Counted from the first letter of the stretch, positions 14,967 through 41,156 are shown. The stretch: 64,000 bases of DNA from Rhabdothermincola salaria (GCF_021246445.1 NZ_JAJQXW010000001.1:372001-436000); one strand, 5' to 3'. Program-made: numbers and translations. Notes: generated by a model not told the origin, from the sequence alone.

Positions 14967-14987
14967 GTGTCAGGCCGCTCCTGACAC
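14967..14987. terminator. Hairpin at the junction of the convergent glycan operons
   Basis: GTGTCAGG-CCGCT-CCTGACAC, perfect 8-bp stem overlapping the flippase stop codon; no U-tract. Confidence 0.35.
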
Positions 14988-16343
14988 GATGCCGGTCGCC
15001 CGGGCCGCTCTGACGAACTGGCGCGGGCTCAGGTAGAGCCTGGTGTCCAGGTCGAGGCGTGTACGGGCAAGCCACCAACCCCCGAAACCCTGAAGAACGC
15101 TTCCGACGCCGGAGGCCGTCGCGACGGCGAGCACGGACACGCCGGCGACGGTCAGCTCGGAAATGATGGTGATGGTGGCGACTGCGCTCATGACGCCGAG
15201 TACGGCCCGGTCGGAGCCGCCAGCCATCACGACCGTTTGGAACGCAGGGCCGAGACCGGCCGCGATGGTGAGTCCCGACATCAGGATCACTGCGGGCCAG
15301 TGGGATTGGGAGAAGAACTCGCCGAAGAACAGAGGGAGAAGCCATCCCCCGAGCGCGGCGATGAGGGCGGTCGACGTCGCCAGGAGGACGAAACCAACGG
15401 TTGCAGCGCAGCGCAGCAGACTCTCCAAGCGTGCATCTTCATGCCGGAGTCTGAAGCGCACGACGTACGGTTGGAGGAGCAGCTGGCTCACTAGGATGGG
15501 CGCCAGCGCCAAGGAGGCCACGCGGACGGCGGCCCCATAGGCGGCGGCGTCCTCGGTACCAAAGAACGCGCCCACGACCCATGTGTCCGCCTGGGTGATT
15601 CCGAGCGCGACGGCCCCGACTGTAGCTATTAGGGCTCCCGCCTTCGCCTGTCGGAGCATGTCTTCGCGGTGCGGGAAGCCTGACTGCACCGGTGCACGGC
15701 GCATCTCGACCAGGAGGAAGAGCAGTCCGACGAGAAAGGTGACTGCTGATGCGCCGAGTGAGAGGGCGAGCACCAGCTTCAGAGATGTCTGTGTGGGGCT
15801 GCCGAGCGTGGCGATCCACACCGCGCCTACGAGAACCGCAAAGATGACGGTTCGCCCAGGGCTCCCGACGATCGTGGCGAGTCCATGGCGGCGCATGCCG
15901 CGCTGAGCCTCGGATGGCACGAGCCGAAGTGATTCGAACAGCACCCACAGGCCGACTAACACCCCAGTGGCCGCGGCCTCTCCGGCCCCGAAGAGCTCTC
16001 GAGCAACTATCGGGAGCGTAAGCGCGACCAGCGTTGCCAGGATGATCGCCGCGACTGCGTTGACGGTCAGCGAGCTCGCGAGGACCCTGATCGCCGTGAC
16101 GTTCCGCAGGTGTTCGTGCGCCGCGAGCTCCCGCACGATCACCCGGTCCTGGCCCAGGCGGGCGATCATTGGGGCGAACAGCGCCACCACCGAGTAGAGG
16201 TAGTAGAGGCCGAGGTCACTGGGGGCCAGCATCCGGGCCAGCATCAGTGTCGACGCGAACGTCGCCGCCATGGCGATGGCTTGGCCACTGCCCGATGCAG
16301 CGAGCGCGCGGCCTGCGGCACGGCGAACGGAGGCAGGCTTCAC
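14970..16343 (-). CDS. Wzx-like oligosaccharide flippase (MOP superfamily)
   Basis: Many TM helices, LARMLAPSDLGLY and ADTWVVGAFFGTEDAAAYGAA motifs. Confidence 0.8.
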   Translation of the reverse strand: MKPASVRRAAGRALAASGSGQAIAMAATFASTLMLARMLAPSDLGLYYLYSVVALFAPMIARLGQDRVIVRELAAHEHLRNVTAIRVLASSLTVNAVAAIILATLVALTLPIVARELFGAGEAAATGVLVGLWVLFESLRLVPSEAQRGMRRHGLATIVGSPGRTVIFAVLVGAVWIATLGSPTQTSLKLVLALSLGASAVTFLVGLLFLLVEMRRAPVQSGFPHREDMLRQAKAGALIATVGAVALGITQADTWVVGAFFGTEDAAAYGAAVRVASLALAPILVSQLLLQPYVVRFRLRHEDARLESLLRCAATVGFVLLATSTALIAALGGWLLPLFFGEFFSQSHWPAVILMSGLTIAAGLGPAFQTVVMAGGSDRAVLGVMSAVATITIISELTVAGVSVLAVATASGVGSVLQGFGGWWLARTRLDLDTRLYLSPRQFVRAARATGIVSGAA

Positions 16344-17260
16344 CGGGGCGGCCGCTCGGACGGGTCACCGGGGCCCAGGCCAGCAGAGAAGCCAACGGCT
16401 CGTAGTTGGGGTGCGAAGTGCTCGAGGACCCGATGGATCTGGGCGTCGTTCGAGCCGCCGGTGACGTTGTCGTGCTTGAGAGCACTCGACTGGTCCGCCC
16501 CGTTCGGCGGCAGGTAGAGCACGTTGGGGCGAGGTACCCGTACCGCGCCGGTCCCGTTTAGGACGGCCGACACCTTGAACCACACGTCGTCCGCCGTCGG
16601 GCAGAACCGCTCAGCGAGGGCGTGGTCCAGAGCCATGGGTGCGAGCGCTCCAGGTGGGTACAGCACTCCTCCCACGCCGACCGGGAATGTCAATGCCGGT
16701 GTCGTGTCGGATCTGGCCTCCTTCCATGTCGCGTAGGGGGCAACCACCCCGTCGCTGCACTCCATGGCCAGGGCTCGGTGGGCCACCACCGTCCCCGGGC
16801 ACCGGGAGTGGACCTCAAGCAACTGGCGAAGCCAATGCCTCGGATACAACACGTCGTCGTCGGCGGTGGCCACGAGGCTTGTAGGGAAGCGTTCCACGGT
16901 TGGGATGAGCTTCTTGTAGCTCCGCTGGTCACCGTCGACGAAGACGAGATCGACTCCGTAGCCGGTCAGCCTGGTAAGGGATTCCGGCAGATCCGATGGC
17001 CCGATCTGGTCTCGTGACATGACCAGTTGGATCGAGTCCGGCCGGGACGATTGCTTGAGTAGGGACCGAAGGGTTAGGTGCACCTTGGGTAAGCGCTCAG
17101 GGATGGTCGTGAGTGACACCACGGCGTGTATTGAGCTTGCCTTAGAGCGACGAAATAGGTCGAGCCGACGTGCGGGAAGACGGGCCCTCATGAATTCGGA
17201 ACAGCGAAGAAGGGCCCTCGTTTCCCGCCGTTGGTAGGCGGGGACGTCGTGGGCAGTCAT
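16340..17260 (-). CDS. Putative GT-A fold glycosyltransferase
   Basis: VSLTTIPERL, SYKKLIP, TADDDVLYP (DxD-like), GVGGVLYPP, ADDVWF. Confidence 0.7.
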   Translation of the reverse strand: MTAHDVPAYQRRETRALLRCSEFMRARLPARRLDLFRRSKASSIHAVVSLTTIPERLPKVHLTLRSLLKQSSRPDSIQLVMSRDQIGPSDLPESLTRLTGYGVDLVFVDGDQRSYKKLIPTVERFPTSLVATADDDVLYPRHWLRQLLEVHSRCPGTVVAHRALAMECSDGVVAPYATWKEARSDTTPALTFPVGVGGVLYPPGALAPMALDHALAERFCPTADDVWFKVSAVLNGTGAVRVPRPNVLYLPPNGADQSSALKHDNVTGGSNDAQIHRVLEHFAPQLRAVGFSAGLGPGDPSERPPR

Positions 17261-18156
17261 GGAAGATCGAGGGGCGTGCGGCGGTCCGACGCGTGAACTG
17301 CCAGCAACAGCGGATTGCCAACGGGCACAGGTGCTGGCTTAGTCAACCGGAACCGACCTGCTCCATAGGCGCCCACCGGGCGAACCTCGGCGAAGCGGTA
17401 CCCAAGCTCATGCAGGATCCGCCTCGCTGACTTGTCGCCCGTTCTCCGATAATCAGCGTTCTCTTCGAACACCACCACGGGGCGGGCGGACTCCAGCATG
17501 AGGGTTCCACCCTCGAGGACATCGGGTTCGAATCCCTCGACGTCGATCTTCACGAGCCTGGGGCTGTTCAGCTCGACGCTGTCGAGTGTGCTAACCGGGA
17601 TCCGTAGGGTTGCAGCTCCGTGGTGCTTCTCGTTGCGTAGGAGACTTGCGGTCCCGCGATTGCGGGTGCTGGGCTCAGGCAGATTCAGCGAAGCGACACC
17701 GGGCTTGGCTCCGAGAGCGACCTCATGGACGACGACGTTTGACCGACCGTTGATCTCGCAATTCAACCGCACTCGGTTGGCGAGGTCAGGGACCGGTTCG
17801 AAAGCATGGGTCGTACCGTCTGGCGCGAGTCGGGAGAGCCGAAGTGTGTGGAGCCCACTGTTGGCTCCCACATCAATGCAGTCGTCGCCAGGATCTACGA
17901 CGGCTTCCAGGATCCGGCCAAGTGCTGGCTCGTACTCGCCGTAGACCCATGCCGACCAATCGACCCAGCTCCGCAGGTCGGCAAGGAACCAGTCACCCTG
18001 CGTTGTTCTGGTGACAACCGGCTGTTCGGGCGGCACCCACCCCGGCTTGCGGTATGACGCAGTAAGCAGTCGCTGGACTCCCCTGATTCGAATGTGATGG
18101 CCCATGAACCGGCCGAGTCGGGAGGTCGCCAAGCTCTGCACTTCTGCAGCGTACAC
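17257..18156 (-). CDS. FkbM-family methyltransferase
   Basis: IDVGANSG, HAFEP, KIDVEGFE. Start uncertain. Confidence 0.88.
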   Translation of the reverse strand: MYAAEVQSLATSRLGRFMGHHIRIRGVQRLLTASYRKPGWVPPEQPVVTRTTQGDWFLADLRSWVDWSAWVYGEYEPALGRILEAVVDPGDDCIDVGANSGLHTLRLSRLAPDGTTHAFEPVPDLANRVRLNCEINGRSNVVVHEVALGAKPGVASLNLPEPSTRNRGTASLLRNEKHHGAATLRIPVSTLDSVELNSPRLVKIDVEGFEPDVLEGGTLMLESARPVVVFEENADYRRTGDKSARRILHELGYRFAEVRPVGAYGAGRFRLTKPAPVPVGNPLLLAVHASDRRTPLDLP

Positions 18157-18216: not shown

Positions 18217-19338
18217 TCAGGTGATGCTCAGCATCCGGTCCAGAGCCACCCTGGCCCACGCTGCTGTCTCGGGATCGACCGTGATCTGGTTGACCACCCG
18301 ACCCTCCACGAGGCCTTCGAGCACCCAGCACAGGTGCTGAGCGTCGATGCGGAACATCGTCGAGCACGGGCACACCAACGGGTCGAGGGAGACGACGGTC
18401 TTGTCCGGGGTCTCGTCGTTCAGGCGGTTCACCAGGTGGATCTCGGTGCCCACCCCGATGACCGCTCCTGGGGGAGCGGCTTCGACGGCCTTGATGATGT
18501 AGTCGGTGGAGCCGACCTGGTCGGCCACCTCGCACACGTCGTGGGCGCACTCGGGATGCACGACCACGATGCCGTCGGGGTGCTGGGCCCGGAACTCGGC
18601 CACGTGTTCGGGGCGGAACCGCTGATGCACCGAGCAGTGCCCCTTCCACAGCAAGAAGGTGGCGTCCTTCACATCGGCCTCGCTCAAGCCTCCTCGCTCG
18701 AGGCGGGGGTTCCACAGGCGCATGTCGGCCTCGGTGAAGCCGAGCTGGTGGCCGGTGTTGCGGCCGAGGTGCTGGTCGGGGAAGAACAGAACCTGCTTGC
18801 CGCCGGCGCCGTCGTCGGCCCGGTCGCCGAGTGAGAGGGCCCACTCCAGCACCGCCTTGGCGTTGGTGGAGGTGCACACCGCACCGCCGTGCTCGCCCAC
18901 GAAGGCCTTCAGCGCGGCCGAGGAGTTCATGTAGGTGATGGGGATCACCTTGGAGATGTCGGTGGTCTTGGCCAGCGCCTCCCAGGCCTCCTCCACCTCG
19001 TCGAGGTCGGCCATGTCGGCCATGGAGCACCCGGCGTTGAGGTCCGGCAGGATCACCTTCTGGTGCTCATCGGTGAGGATGTCGGCGGATTCGGCCATGA
19101 AGTGGACGCCGCAGAACACGATGTAGTCGGCCTCGGGATGCTGTTGGGCGAGCACGGAGAGCCGGAAGGAGTCTCCGCGGGCGTCGGCCCAGCGCATGAC
19201 CTCGTCGCGCTGGTAGTGGTGGCCGAGGATGAAGACGCGTTCACCGAGCGTGCGCTTGGCTGCGTCGATGCGGGACGCGAGGTCATCGAGCGTGGCGTCG
19301 GCGTACCGCTCGGGAAGCGGGATCTGGAGCCGCAACAT
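18217..19338 (-). CDS. nadA: Quinolinate synthase
   Basis: LGHHYQ, GDS, FCGVHFMAE, AGCSMA, YMNSSA, GHCSVH, HPEC, CPCSTM. ATG 19338 preferred over GTG 19404. Confidence 0.95.
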   Translation of the reverse strand: MLRLQIPLPERYADATLDDLASRIDAAKRTLGERVFILGHHYQRDEVMRWADARGDSFRLSVLAQQHPEADYIVFCGVHFMAESADILTDEHQKVILPDLNAGCSMADMADLDEVEEAWEALAKTTDISKVIPITYMNSSAALKAFVGEHGGAVCTSTNAKAVLEWALSLGDRADDGAGGKQVLFFPDQHLGRNTGHQLGFTEADMRLWNPRLERGGLSEADVKDATFLLWKGHCSVHQRFRPEHVAEFRAQHPDGIVVVHPECAHDVCEVADQVGSTDYIIKAVEAAPPGAVIGVGTEIHLVNRLNDETPDKTVVSLDPLVCPCSTMFRIDAQHLCWVLEGLVEGRVVNQITVDPETAAWARVALDRMLSIT

Positions 19339-19344
19339 GTTGTC

Positions 19345-19457
19345 TGGAACCCCCAGGGGGAAGAGGGCACCGATGGTGAGCGGTGGGGGCAGCCTGGTCG
19401 CCACGCCACGGGGATGTCGCTCTCGGTGTCCGATATGTCGCCGGATACCAGGCCGGC
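19345..19457 (-). ncRNA. Candidate NAD+-I (nadA-motif)-like riboswitch / structured leader
   Basis: TAGAGT -10 at 19469-19464. Leader folds CACCGA-GAGCG-[ACAUCCCC]-GUGG...CCAC-CGCUC-acca-UCGGUG, with competing GGCCUGGU/ACCAGGCU pairing. Similarity to the NAD+-I core is from memory and was not searched. Confidence 0.5.
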
Positions 19458-19555
19458 GGTGTCACTCTAGGTCAGCGCCAGCGAGATCGCGAACATTCCC
19501 GGAGGGCCCACCGTGGGCGACAGCGCCGCTGACGATGACCCGTACGATTGGGACG

Positions 19556-21448
19556 ATGGTCCAGCGTCCCCCAGCCGGCACGATCCCCGATGCTCCCGGC
19601 TCCTACCAGTTCAAGGACGCGCACGGACGGGTGATCTACGTGGGCAAGGCCAAGAGCCTGCGCCAGCGCCTCTCGAACTACTTCCAGAACCCGCGCAACC
19701 TGGCGCCGCGCACCGCCCAGATGGTGGCCACCGCCGAGTCCGTCGAGTGGATCCAGGTCCGCAACGACGTCGAGGCGCTCATGCTCGAGTACAGCCTCAT
19801 CAAGCAGCACCAGCCCCGGTTCAACATCCGCCTGCGCGACGACAAGAGCTACCCGTTCCTCGCCGTCACCCTCGACGACGAGTGGCCCCGGGCCACCGTC
19901 ATGCGCGGCGCCAAGCGCAAGGGCACCCGCTACTTCGGCCCCTACGCCCACGCCTGGGCCATCCGCGAGACCCTCGATCTGTTGTTGCGCACGTTCCCGA
20001 TCCGCACCTGCTCGCAGAACAAGTTCAACCGCCACGCCAAGCTCGGTCGGCCCTGCCTGTTGTTCCACATCGAGAAGTGCACCGGCCCCTGCGTGGGCGA
20101 GATCGCCAAACCCGACTACGACGACCTCGTCGACGAGCTGGTCAGCTTCCTCGACGGCGACACCGACACCGTCATCCGCCGCCTCGAGGCCCAGATGGCC
20201 GAGGCGGCCAGCGAGCTCGAGTTCGAGCGGGCGGCCCGGGTGCGTGACCGCCTGGGGGCGGTGCGCCAGGCCATCGAGAAGCAGCAGATGGTGGTGGAGC
20301 GCTCCGAGGACCTCGACGTGATCGGCCTGGCCGATGACGAGCTGGAAGCGGCGGTGCAGGTGTTCTTCGTGCGCCGGGGCCGGGTGGTGGGCCGCAAGGG
20401 GTTCGTGGTCGACAAGGCCGAGGACGTCACCCCCGGTGAGCTGGTCGACCGCATCCTCGAGGGCCTCTACGCCGACCCGCCCCCCATGGGCGTGCCCAAG
20501 CAGGTCCTCGTCCCCACCGAGAGCGCCGATCCCGAGCTCTACGAGGAGTTCCTGGGTGAGGTCCGGGGCTCGAAGGTCGCCATCCGGGTGCCCCAGCGCG
20601 GCGACAAGCGCGAGCTGATGGCCATGGTCACCCGCAACGCCGAGGAGGAGCTGGTGCGCCACCGGCTGCGCCGGGCGTCGGACCACAACACCCGGGCCCG
20701 GGCGCTCAACGAGCTCCAGCAGTACCTCGACCTCCCCGAAGCCCCGTTGCGCATCGAGTGCTACGACATGAGCCACATCCAGGGCAGCGACTACGTGGGC
20801 TCCATGGTCGTGCTCGAGGACGGTCTGCCCAAGAAGAGCGAGTATCGGCGCTTCAAGATCCGCAGCGGGCAGGGCAACGACGACTTCGCCGCCATGGAGG
20901 AGGTGCTCACCCGTCGCCTCCGCGCCTACCTCGAGGATCGGGAGAAGCCCGTCACCGAGCGGGGCGGCAAGTTCTCGTACCCGCCCCAGCTGTTGCTGGT
21001 CGACGGCGGCAAGGGGCAGCTCAGCGTGGTGGTCCGGGTGCTCGAGGAGCTGGGCCTCGACGAGGAGATCCCCGTCGCCTCGCTGGCCAAGCAGTTCGAG
21101 GAGGTCTACCGCCCGGGCGACCCGACGCCCATGCGCGTGCCCCGAGGCAGCGACGCCCTCTACCTGCTGCAACGCATCCGCGACGAGGCCCACCGCTTCG
21201 CCATCAGCTACCACCGCCAGCTGCGCGGCAAGCGCATGACCACCTCCGTCCTCGACGGCATCCCCGGCCTCGGGCCTACCCGCAAGGCCCGCCTGGTCAA
21301 GGAGCTCGGCGGTGTCGGCGCCGTGAAGAAGGCGTCGCTGGAGAACCTCAAGGAGCTCTCCTGGCTCCCGGACACCGTCGCCGAGGCCGTCCATACCAAG
21401 ATCCACGGTTCCAGCAGTCGCACGCCAGGCCCTACGGTCGGCTCGTGA
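19556..21448 (+). CDS. uvrC: Excinuclease ABC subunit C
   Basis: GIY-YIG region (VIYVGKAKSLRQR), RIECYDMSH, DGGKGQ, RDEAHRFA, HhH. ATG 7 nt after a TACGAT hexamer. Confidence 0.97.
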   Translation: MVQRPPAGTIPDAPGSYQFKDAHGRVIYVGKAKSLRQRLSNYFQNPRNLAPRTAQMVATAESVEWIQVRNDVEALMLEYSLIKQHQPRFNIRLRDDKSYPFLAVTLDDEWPRATVMRGAKRKGTRYFGPYAHAWAIRETLDLLLRTFPIRTCSQNKFNRHAKLGRPCLLFHIEKCTGPCVGEIAKPDYDDLVDELVSFLDGDTDTVIRRLEAQMAEAASELEFERAARVRDRLGAVRQAIEKQQMVVERSEDLDVIGLADDELEAAVQVFFVRRGRVVGRKGFVVDKAEDVTPGELVDRILEGLYADPPPMGVPKQVLVPTESADPELYEEFLGEVRGSKVAIRVPQRGDKRELMAMVTRNAEEELVRHRLRRASDHNTRARALNELQQYLDLPEAPLRIECYDMSHIQGSDYVGSMVVLEDGLPKKSEYRRFKIRSGQGNDDFAAMEEVLTRRLRAYLEDREKPVTERGGKFSYPPQLLLVDGGKGQLSVVVRVLEELGLDEEIPVASLAKQFEEVYRPGDPTPMRVPRGSDALYLLQRIRDEAHRFAISYHRQLRGKRMTTSVLDGIPGLGPTRKARLVKELGGVGAVKKASLENLKELSWLPDTVAEAVHTKIHGSSSRTPGPTVGS

Positions 21449-39699: not shown

Positions 39700-40383
39700 A
39701 TGTCCTCCCGCGCCCACCGCGTCGCCGTGCTCGCCGTGGGCGTCGGGGCCGCGATCGCGTTGCTCGCCGCCGGGTGCGGGTCGTCGTCGGACGACGGCGC
39801 CTCGGCTCCGGGTCCGACTGTCGGGGCGAGCGACCTGGTCGGCGACGCTCCCGATCCCGCCGTCGAGGTGGGCGACCTCGTGCTCACCGACCACGCCACC
39901 GAGCCGGCCGGCGAGCCCTTCGCCGTGGCGGCGCCGGAGGGCCAGCTCCTGGTGGTCTACTTCGGCTACCTCTCGTGCCCCGACGTCTGCCCGCTCACCA
40001 TGGCCGACACCGCGGCCGGCCTGGCCGAGCTCTCACCCGACGAGCGTGAGCGGGTGGAGGTCGCGTTCGTCACCGTCGATCTGGCGCGCGACGACGGTCC
40101 GCGCATCGCCGACTACCTGTCCCACTTCTTCCCCGACTCGGGGACCCACGCTCTGCGCGCCGCCGACGATGGCGCCCTGTACAAGGTCACCTACCGGTTC
40201 AACGTCCAGTGGGAGATCGAGCCCCACGAGCCCGGCGACTTCTACGCCGTCGCCCACACCGGCGACACCTACGTCGTCGACGACCAGGGCCGCCTCGTGT
40301 GGCGCTGGCCCTACGGCACCGCCGGCCCCGAGATCGGTGCCGGCCTGCGCTCGTTGCTGGCGAGCACCTACCCGAGCACCTGA
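39700..40383 (+). CDS. SCO1/SenC family copper-binding lipoprotein
   Basis: Lipobox LAAGC, FGYLSCPDVCP, VTVDLARD, conserved His (VAHT). Confidence 0.9.
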   Translation: MSSRAHRVAVLAVGVGAAIALLAAGCGSSSDDGASAPGPTVGASDLVGDAPDPAVEVGDLVLTDHATEPAGEPFAVAAPEGQLLVVYFGYLSCPDVCPLTMADTAAGLAELSPDERERVEVAFVTVDLARDDGPRIADYLSHFFPDSGTHALRAADDGALYKVTYRFNVQWEIEPHEPGDFYAVAHTGDTYVVDDQGRLVWRWPYGTAGPEIGAGLRSLLASTYPST

Positions 40384-40502
40384 GCGCGGTGCCCATCACC
40401 CTGAGCTTCGCCCGCGGGTCCGAGGTCCGCGTCATCGCTCGGCACGGTGGGGGCGGGTCGGCTTGGAACATCGGTGACGGCGGGCGCTACGGTCGCCTCC
40501 TC

Positions 40503-41156
40503 ATGCCCGACGACGCCCCCGACGACACACCGCCGCCCGACGGCACCTCACCCGCCGACGAGACCACCGGTCGCGGGGACCTCCCCGACGTCGGCGATCC
40601 GGAGTCGACCGATCTCGATGCCGCCGGCGACGCCTCGGGGGATGCCACCCCGGCTGCGCTCGCCGACGCCGACATCCGCGACGCCCTGCCCGAGGACCTC
40701 GACGCCGCCGGCTACGTGGGCCCGTACCTGTTCCCGAACAACAACCGACGCCGCATCCCCGCCTACCTCTACTGGGGCATCGCCGCGGTCTGCGCCGTGG
40801 TGTGGTTCATCTACCGCGACGGCGACAACCCCGTGGTCAACGGCGGGTTCCTCGCCGCCGCCATCGGGCTGGTGCTCATCGGTGCCTACAGCTTCGTGTC
40901 GGGCTGGAACCTCGACGTCGACGAACGCGACGCCCTGGTGGTGGCCACCCGCCAGGTCGGCTTCCCGGTGGGCCACGCGTCGGCCCAGATGGGCTGGCGG
41001 GGGCTGCTCAGCCGACCCACCTGGCGCATCCTGCTCTACTCCGCCGAGGACCCGCCCGACAAGCGGGGCCTGGTCCTCGTCGACGGCCTCGACGCATCCG
41101 TGGTCGAGTGGTTCGTCGAGGACAATCCTGAGGACTGGACCGACCTGAGCATCTAG
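40503..41156 (+). CDS. Hypothetical membrane protein (acidic N-terminus, 2 TM)
   Basis: Strong GC3 codon bias, TACGGT -10 upstream, two hydrophobic helices. Confidence 0.7.
   Translation: MPDDAPDDTPPPDGTSPADETTGRGDLPDVGDPESTDLDAAGDASGDATPAALADADIRDALPEDLDAAGYVGPYLFPNNNRRRIPAYLYWGIAAVCAVVWFIYRDGDNPVVNGGFLAAAIGLVLIGAYSFVSGWNLDVDERDALVVATRQVGFPVGHASAQMGWRGLLSRPTWRILLYSAEDPPDKRGLVLVDGLDASVVEWFVEDNPEDWTDLSI

Follow-up and report, generated by a model that had tools for sequence, protein, structure and literature searches.

We found that the 5' untranslated region of nadA in Rhabdothermincola salaria carries a conserved, pseudoknotted RNA that is probably cis-regulatory, most likely an NAD+ riboswitch that recognizes its ligand through the ADP half. 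At least 77 species-level genomes of Acidimicrobiia carry the element, which, judged from the aligned sequences, is best read as a hitherto undescribed riboswitch candidate that resembles NAD+-I but has a single domain and a pseudoknot. It combines hallmarks of riboswitches, namely a covarying structure in a 5' untranslated region, invariant unpaired nucleotides and association with one metabolic gene. A first-pass annotation had proposed an NAD+-I-like element in this actinobacterium, and its overall reading was supported wherever sequence analysis can test it, every string that it cited lying at the minus-strand position it had given.

A conserved leader upstream of nadA

The window (the whole 64-kb stretch of DNA that was analysed) is housekeeping chromosome, with uvrA/B/C, gap-pgk-tpi, secG, cysS, thrS, pdxS/T, ruvAB, queA-tgt and secDF. 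In it, nadA, which encodes quinolinate synthase A, lies on the minus strand (18217..19338, 373 aa, ATG at 19338-19336), position 19339 being the final base of its leader. The product matches the Pfam NadA family (E 1.3e-93), and the domain begins after ATG 19338. The divergent gene, uvrC (19556-21448), starts at 19556 on the plus strand and is separated from nadA by 217 nt, which implies that both promoters lie within one short intergenic region. The same divergent pair was seen again in several loci (e.g. L002-L005, L009-L011, L017, L027), where uvrC was recognized from the reverse complement of a ATGGTGCAG-type start upstream of the leader. On the 3' side of nadA, the minus strand carries an FkbM-type methyltransferase gene, an ORF without Pfam match and a polysaccharide-biosynthesis (flippase-like) gene (14970-18156). 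Since nadB and nadC are not adjacent to nadA, the leader appears to act on nadA alone here. The window ORFs of at least 230 aa include neither a further NAD gene nor a regulator of NAD genes.

To obtain relatives, genome contigs were scanned with the NadA of the window and the best 80 of 565 confirmed relatives were kept. These are titled Acidimicrobiia, Acidimicrobiales, Iamiaceae, Microthrixaceae or unclassified Actinomycetota MAGs, and the closest NadA among the best 80 of the 565 is 88% identical (L072, Iamiaceae). In nearly all 80 loci the tblastn alignment starts at residue 1 or 2, and the sequence 5' of nadA is strikingly conserved among the kept loci. Two alignments of the leaders were made: a MAFFT alignment (A1) of the window and 75 loci (76 rows), which left out three loci with no upstream DNA (L013, L014, L052), one that is truncated on its 5' side (L007) and one that is identical to another (L061, identical to L060), and a model-fitted alignment (A2) of 77 distinct rows.

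With R1, a covariance model built in this work from which the pseudoknot was left out, the whole conserved element maps to 19356..19466 on the minus strand (112.7 bits, E 1e-22). This is the one strong match in the 64-kb window. Among the best 80 of 565 loci, 77 carry one R1 match each, directly 5' of nadA, and the three others are those that have no DNA upstream; with the window, all 78 of 78 matches lie directly upstream of nadA. The runner-up match in the window (16.2 bits, 40785-40881, plus strand) was rejected as a second copy, as it lies in frame inside an ORF (40209-41156) and was taken as chance. This ORF encodes a hydrophobic protein without Pfam match and carries CGACAACCCCGTG at 40823-40835 (plus strand).

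Two of the matches are atypical. One (L021:1321-1469, 58.3 bits) has an insertion of ~40 nt between the helices P0 and P1 described below and a ACAUCUUC bulge; the other (L054:1013-1120, 38.7 bits) keeps P0 and the kissing complementarity and lacks the ACANCCCC bulge. Both may be decaying or divergent versions of the element. In addition, five contigs bear titles at odds with the rest, Acidobacteria bacterium (L027, L030, L054), Bifidobacterium breve (L048) and Nocardioides (L052), while their NadA proteins are 71-83% identical to that of the window; the leader is also found in L027, L030, L048 and L054, and L052 is one of the loci without upstream DNA. These titles look like MAG mislabelling or bin contamination, which is of consequence here since Acidobacteria are given as the sole hosts of the published nadA motif.

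On the window sequence taken by itself, the minimum free energy of the leader is -45.8 kcal/mol against a dinucleotide-shuffle mean of -48.05 (z = +0.57), and 144/200 shuffles fold at least as stably; single-sequence thermodynamics is evidence neither for nor against the element. The bulge octamer ACANCCCC is seen 11 times in the window versus 13.2 expected, and the longer CGACANCCCCGYG twice versus 0.21 expected, its second copy being inside a coding ORF. Rfam 15 returned no family match at gathering thresholds in the whole window, and in a 301-nt E-value scan of the window the nadA model had no match at E <= 10. The same scan gave a RAGATH-16 match on the strand opposite the nadA leader and facing uvrC (19421-19504, plus strand, 22.2 bits vs gathering 65.6, E 0.051), which is probably chance, and a mir-9242 match that was taken as chance. 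That the element is real becomes apparent only when the leaders of relatives are compared.

Helices, kissing loop and predicted transcript start

We scored a six-helix model on both alignments. In A1, 95.1% of 2303 cells pair, against 83.1% in column shuffles and 30-48% with slid partners, and both-sided changes occur in 22/31 pairs; in A2, the paired fraction is 96.3%, whereas shuffles give 83.1% and slid controls 28-49%, with changes on both sides at 24/31 pairs, and 0/500 shuffles reach any of the measures. As the sequences are related, such counts of cells exceed the independent events behind them. When run de novo, RNAalifold recovered P0, P1, P2 and the start of P3. The stems claimed from the window alone (CACCGA 19428-19423/UCGGUG 19373-19368, GAGCG/CGCUC 19382-19378 and GUGG/CCAC) all covary where they had been placed, and the comparison with relatives that had been proposed for them found them conserved and paired well above shuffles and slid controls.

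From its 5' end, the element (all coordinates on the minus strand) opens with the hairpin P0 (19439..19458), in which CGCCGG 19458-19453 pairs with CCGGCG 19444-19439 around the loop CCUGGUAU (19452-19445); both-sided changes are found in 6/6 pairs, and 93.8% of cells pair in A2. The linker J0/1 that follows is single-stranded (ACAUAUC, 19432..19438, or GACAUAUC when G19439 is counted) and conserved, GACATATC being its commonest form (25/76) and the remainder mostly ...CATATC variants. GCGACAU does occur twice, as had been observed (19441-19435 and 19420-19414). The idea that GACAUAUC is the relic of a second bulge was rejected, ACAU alone being shared and many relatives carrying UCCAUAUC or UGCAUAUC. 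The 5' strand of P1, GGACACCGA (19423..19431), pairs with UCGGUGCCC (19365..19373) with both-sided changes in 9/9 pairs, and this 3' strand is placed by covariation in A1 and A2. Directly inside lies P2, whose 5' strand GAGCG (19418..19422) covaries in 4/5 pairs; its penultimate pair, C19419-G19381, is C-G in 76/77 rows of A2.

Past the one-sided bulge (19410..19417), P3 is formed by GUGG (19406..19409) and CCAC (19383-19386); its second pair is UA in 59 rows and CG in 17, and its fourth GC in 69, CG in 7 and UG in 1 (A2). An internal loop on the 5' side (CGU here, 19403..19405, opposite C19387) is variable, with 2-4 nt among relatives. On the return, the 3' strands (19378..19389) run through P4 CC (19389-19388), C19387, P3 CCAC and P2 CGCUC, the stretch between the apical UG and P2 measuring 7 nt in 76/76 leaders. 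Between P2 and P1, a bulge on the 3' side (ACCA, 19374..19377) has 3-5 nt in relatives, most commonly ACA (20/76).

In the apical segment GGCGACCAGGCUG (19390..19402), the GGCG, CC and CTG blocks are invariant or nearly so, CUG being invariant, and alignment columns 75-99 contain zero indels in 76 leaders. Within the segment, GG 19402-19401 can pair with CC 19389-19388 (P4; GC in 77 rows at one pair and GU 47/GC 30 at the other, with no both-sided change in A2), and CCAGG 19397-19393 forms the 3' arm of a pseudoknot whose 5' arm is CCUGG in the P0 loop (19448..19452); G19453 may give a sixth pair. In A2, which was made with a model from which the pseudoknot is absent, 100% of its cells pair and 3/5 pairs covary, the central pair being UA in 50 rows, CG in 16, GC in 7 and AU in 3.

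The first-pass annotation had drawn here an eight-pair helix between GGCCUGGU (19454-19447) and ACCAGGCU (19398-19391), giving a pseudoknot or an alternative fold. What holds of this is a conserved, covarying pseudoknot of 5-6 of the 8 pairs; the full 8-bp long-range helix was rejected, its outer U-A (columns 24-79) pairing in only 45/76 leaders. This helix is better read as a kissing loop than as an established competing fold. A GGC/GCU mini-stem that RNAalifold placed in the apical segment was also rejected: it never varies, and the two leaders with covariation at the pseudoknot partner have lost its C-G pair.

A promoter is predicted just upstream of P0. The putative -10 box TAGAGT (19464..19469), read from the sequence, lies exactly where it had been claimed, and a TANNNT box is kept just 5' of the element in relatives. 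Among the leaders scored by a strict P0 finder (64 of 78, the other 14 being left out), TANNNT occurs within 25 nt 5' of P0 in 64/64, a count made with no shuffle control, and its end is 6-10 nt from P0 in 59/64. The box reads TACACT in 27 leaders, TATGCT in 8, TAGACT in 7 and TAGAGT in 4, with others in the remainder. Transcription would then start at ~19458, at the base of P0, for a leader of ~120 nt.

These data also bear on whether the element could be coding sequence or a chance likeness. The coding candidates would be a NadA lengthened at its N terminus by a start at GTG 19404, or else the long plus-strand ORF 19229-21448; GTG 19404 is indeed in frame with nadA in the window, high G+C keeps long frames open on both strands, and the octamer alone is at chance frequency. 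However, a matching in-frame GTG is present in only 24/77 leaders, an in-frame stop lies within 66 nt of the ATG in 8/77, and the distance from bulge to ATG, taken modulo 3, is spread 22/36/18 over all three frames, which argues that the element is not coding. Helix substitutions are compensatory and not concentrated at codon third positions, relatives align from the first residues of a NadA whose domain follows ATG 19338, and the GIY-YIG domain of UvrC starts 15 residues after 19556. We therefore rejected translation from GTG 19404 through the element, an objection raised with the original claim, as this GTG is not a conserved start, and we regard chance or coding as highly improbable.

Comparison with NAD+-I, the ubiB motif and NAD+-II

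The bulge is the centre of the likeness to NAD+-I (nadA motif, RF03013). Its claimed position is exact, and its sequence here, ACAUCCCC, is the same as the consensus bulge of the Rfam nadA family; among the leaders, 67/76 fit ACANCCCC (ACATCCCC in 42, ACAACCCC in 21 and ACACCCCC in 4), with CG directly 5' of the bulge in 74/76. The conserved core reads C-G, G-C, ACAWCCCC, G-C, Y-R, a fixed 7-nt 3' strand and then UG. As described in the cited papers, domain 1 of NAD+-I consists of P1, a ACANCCCC bulge, a 7-bp P1a, an AGYG loop and P1b; its penultimate P1 pair, a C-G that contacts the adenine, binds ADP together with the bulge, and G36 and G38 pair with C residues of the bulge (PMC6859854 for the architecture; PMC7297122, PMC10702441 for both architecture and contacts). 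The nucleotides around our bulge equal this ADP pocket in the penultimate C-G, the presence of a closing pair, the ACANCCCC bulge, the G-C and Y-R pairs, the 7-nt strand and the UG.

When searched with the Rfam nadA model, as had been suggested, the core aligns in register. Over the 62 positions of the model, P1 falls on P2 here (P2 is the counterpart of the inner end of NAD+-I P1), followed by the bulge and by the GU..AC with which P1a starts, and the uG within AGuG comes to lie on UG 19391-19390. The score is however far under the gathering threshold of 37.5 bits, with 12.3 bits for the window (19422..19378, E 1.7 in 81 nt) and 19.8 bits for L039 (E 0.018 in 141 nt), and in 15/16 loci scanned no match was obtained at E <= 10. 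Scores so far below gathering make the element a variant rather than a family member, which is in keeping with the variant of the NAD+-I core originally proposed. On sequence grounds it may work like NAD+-I domain 1, to which it is possibly homologous, while by family criteria it is not a member.

The element shares with NAD+-I its place in the 5' untranslated region of nadA, an 8-nt one-sided ACANCCCC bulge between two helices with a penultimate C-G before it, a helix after the bulge that opens with G-C and then U-A (or C-G), a 7-nt 3' strand between the bulge-side helix and an unpaired YG, and a ribosome-binding site that may fall within a small downstream hairpin. It differs in many respects. 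The closing pair is G-C here versus A-U in the Rfam consensus, and the continuous 7-bp P1a is replaced by 4 bp, an asymmetric loop with 2-4 nt facing 1 nt, and 2 bp; a continuous 7-bp P1a was not supported, the column pair 72-90 pairing in 0/76 leaders and the column pair 74-88 in 39/74, with no both-sided changes. In place of AGYG the leaders carry GCUG (74/76), in which YG is invariant and the G36 equivalent is a C; this C adjoins or lies within the pseudoknot, and the columns corresponding to the tertiary pairs of the bulge never vary. Unlike NAD+-I, the element has a loop kissing an extra 5' hairpin instead of P1b, and an added outer helix, P1, with its 3'-side bulge.

Two further differences had been anticipated. 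All 101 NAD+-I representatives published in the survey cited are tandem, with the ribosome-binding site in P1', and come only from Acidobacteria (PMC6859854). Here, as claimed, the leader lies outside that host range, in Acidimicrobiia (Actinomycetota), and shows only one clear domain: there is one ACANCCCC in the leader and one R1 match per locus, the second bulged domain is absent, and a short pyrimidine-run/Shine-Dalgarno hairpin stands downstream instead.

We compared the element with two other RNAs. The ubiB motif, reported as a variant of NAD+-I domain 1 with nine representatives in Nocardia and a plain ribosome-binding-site hairpin (PMC6859854, PMC7297122), resembles it in having an actinobacterial host and one domain-1-like bulged stem followed by such a hairpin in place of the second bulged domain. 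It differs in its gene, ubiB rather than nadA, and in an internal loop 7 bp from the bulge, the corresponding 7-bp helix being absent here; in the published descriptions of the motif from which this comparison was drawn, no 5' hairpin or pseudoknot is mentioned. NAD+-II (pnuC motif) is reported to sense NAD+-related ligands and to use a pseudoknot involving the ribosome-binding site (PMC8632094, PMC10085692), and resembles our element in having a pseudoknot and, if the latter senses such a ligand as we infer, in its ligand; its fold is however unrelated, and in the same accounts it binds the nicotinamide side and precedes pnuC in Streptococcus. No NAD+-II Rfam match was obtained in the leader scans at E <= 10. 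A full-text literature search brought up neither a nadA leader RNA from Acidimicrobiia nor a third class for NAD+, and two Breaker-lab discovery surveys mention nadA by citation only.

What a riboswitch of this kind would sense is suggested by the same literature. The isolated NAD+-I pocket is reported to sense the ADP moiety only (PMC7297122), and the full-length RNA not to discriminate against ATP (PMC10702441). These reports, together with the near-identical domain 1 that precedes a non-NAD gene in Nocardia (PMC6859854), favour a riboswitch for another ligand, an ADP-containing or pathway compound such as ADP/ATP (energy charge), NaAD, NaMN, ADP-ribose or quinolinate, whose polarity may differ, for instance as an ON switch. 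Against it, the element stands before nadA only (78/78), as does the validated NAD+-I class. We consider another ligand fairly unlikely and NAD+ the probable one.

A bolder proposal, which we hold tentatively and as unlikely, is a third NAD+-sensing architecture, in which one ADP-pocket domain, inherited from NAD+-I or convergent with it, would combine with the kissing loop and J0/1 to enclose the ligand in a pocket with contacts to its nicotinamide half as well. If true, this would show the purpose of the enigmatic domain 2 of NAD+-I, supply the NAD+/ATP discrimination missing from NAD+-I, and unite the nadA form of Acidobacteria, the ubiB form of Nocardia and the one from Acidimicrobiia in one radiating aptamer family. 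NAD+-I is among the least understood riboswitch classes, its second domain having no demonstrated ligand (PMC10702441). As a natural variant with the nucleotides of the ADP pocket intact, no second domain and a covarying kissing loop in addition, the element is a comparative test of which parts NAD+ recognition and gene control require. If sensing takes place here as the sequence suggests, RNA-based sensing of NAD+ at nadA would also reach a second phylum.

Shine-Dalgarno region and possible control of translation

The aptamer-like fold extends from the predicted mRNA 5' end to ~27 nt before the start codon, and a pyrimidine run and the Shine-Dalgarno sequence follow directly. In the window, a C-run (19360-19356) and the G-run Shine-Dalgarno (19354-19350; together 19350..19360, minus strand) form a weak hairpin with a local MFE of -5.2 kcal/mol that could sequester the Shine-Dalgarno. 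Such sequestration had been claimed, and it stands as far as the adjoining runs and the weak hairpin are concerned; across relatives, the local MFE structure pairs 75% or more of the Shine-Dalgarno in only 28/76 leaders, and no sequence-specific co-variation was found between the C-run and the Shine-Dalgarno across the leaders. Duplexes of each anti-Shine-Dalgarno with its own Shine-Dalgarno average -8.53 kcal/mol versus -8.34 for cross duplexes, and 423/2000 permutations are at least as good.

In constrained folding with the aptamer forced versus forbidden, Shine-Dalgarno accessibility goes up in 30 and down in 19 of 76 leaders. In 70/76 leaders, the most favourable duplex with the Shine-Dalgarno region begins inside the P1 3' strand; if real, such a duplex would free the Shine-Dalgarno when P1 forms, a polarity that the reading with another ligand would allow, but it has no support above composition. 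Taken together, constrained folding, the local Shine-Dalgarno hairpin and duplex energies gave no consistent signal for a switching helix or mutually exclusive folds.

The want of a clear switching helix in these analyses also speaks for a structured leader that binds no small molecule and serves as a protein or sRNA site, or as an mRNA stability or processing element. Covariation is likewise proof of structure and not of ligand binding, and P1 and P2 are stable by themselves: with 14 GC-rich pairs in all, they are expected to fold even when no ligand is bound, which argues against ligand switching. We nevertheless judge such a leader unlikely, as the invariant unpaired nucleotides cluster in the bulge, which corresponds to a ligand pocket of solved structure, a compact pseudoknot before a cofactor-biosynthesis gene is typical of riboswitches, and no candidate regulator gene stands beside nadA in the window.

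The preferred reading, an NAD+ riboswitch, could operate as follows. The transcript would start at the base of P0 and fold into the bipartite P1+P2 stem, which would lead through the one-sided ACAWCCCC bulge into the 4-bp P3, a small asymmetric loop and the apical segment, whose CCAGG would kiss the P0 loop. NAD+ bound at the bulge would lock the P1/P2/P3 stack together with the kissing loop. The weak Shine-Dalgarno hairpin, 0-5 nt past P1, might then be steadied by stacking on the folded aptamer, or else the compact fold itself might block the ribosome; by either route, high NAD+ would lead to less nadA translation.

The spacing between P1 and the Shine-Dalgarno is not uniform among the loci. 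Without a following U-run in these cases, seven loci (L016, L019, L022, L023, L031, L034, L069) carry there an extra GC-rich hairpin (segment ~-15 to -27 kcal/mol), and two others (L017, L027) a long spacer.
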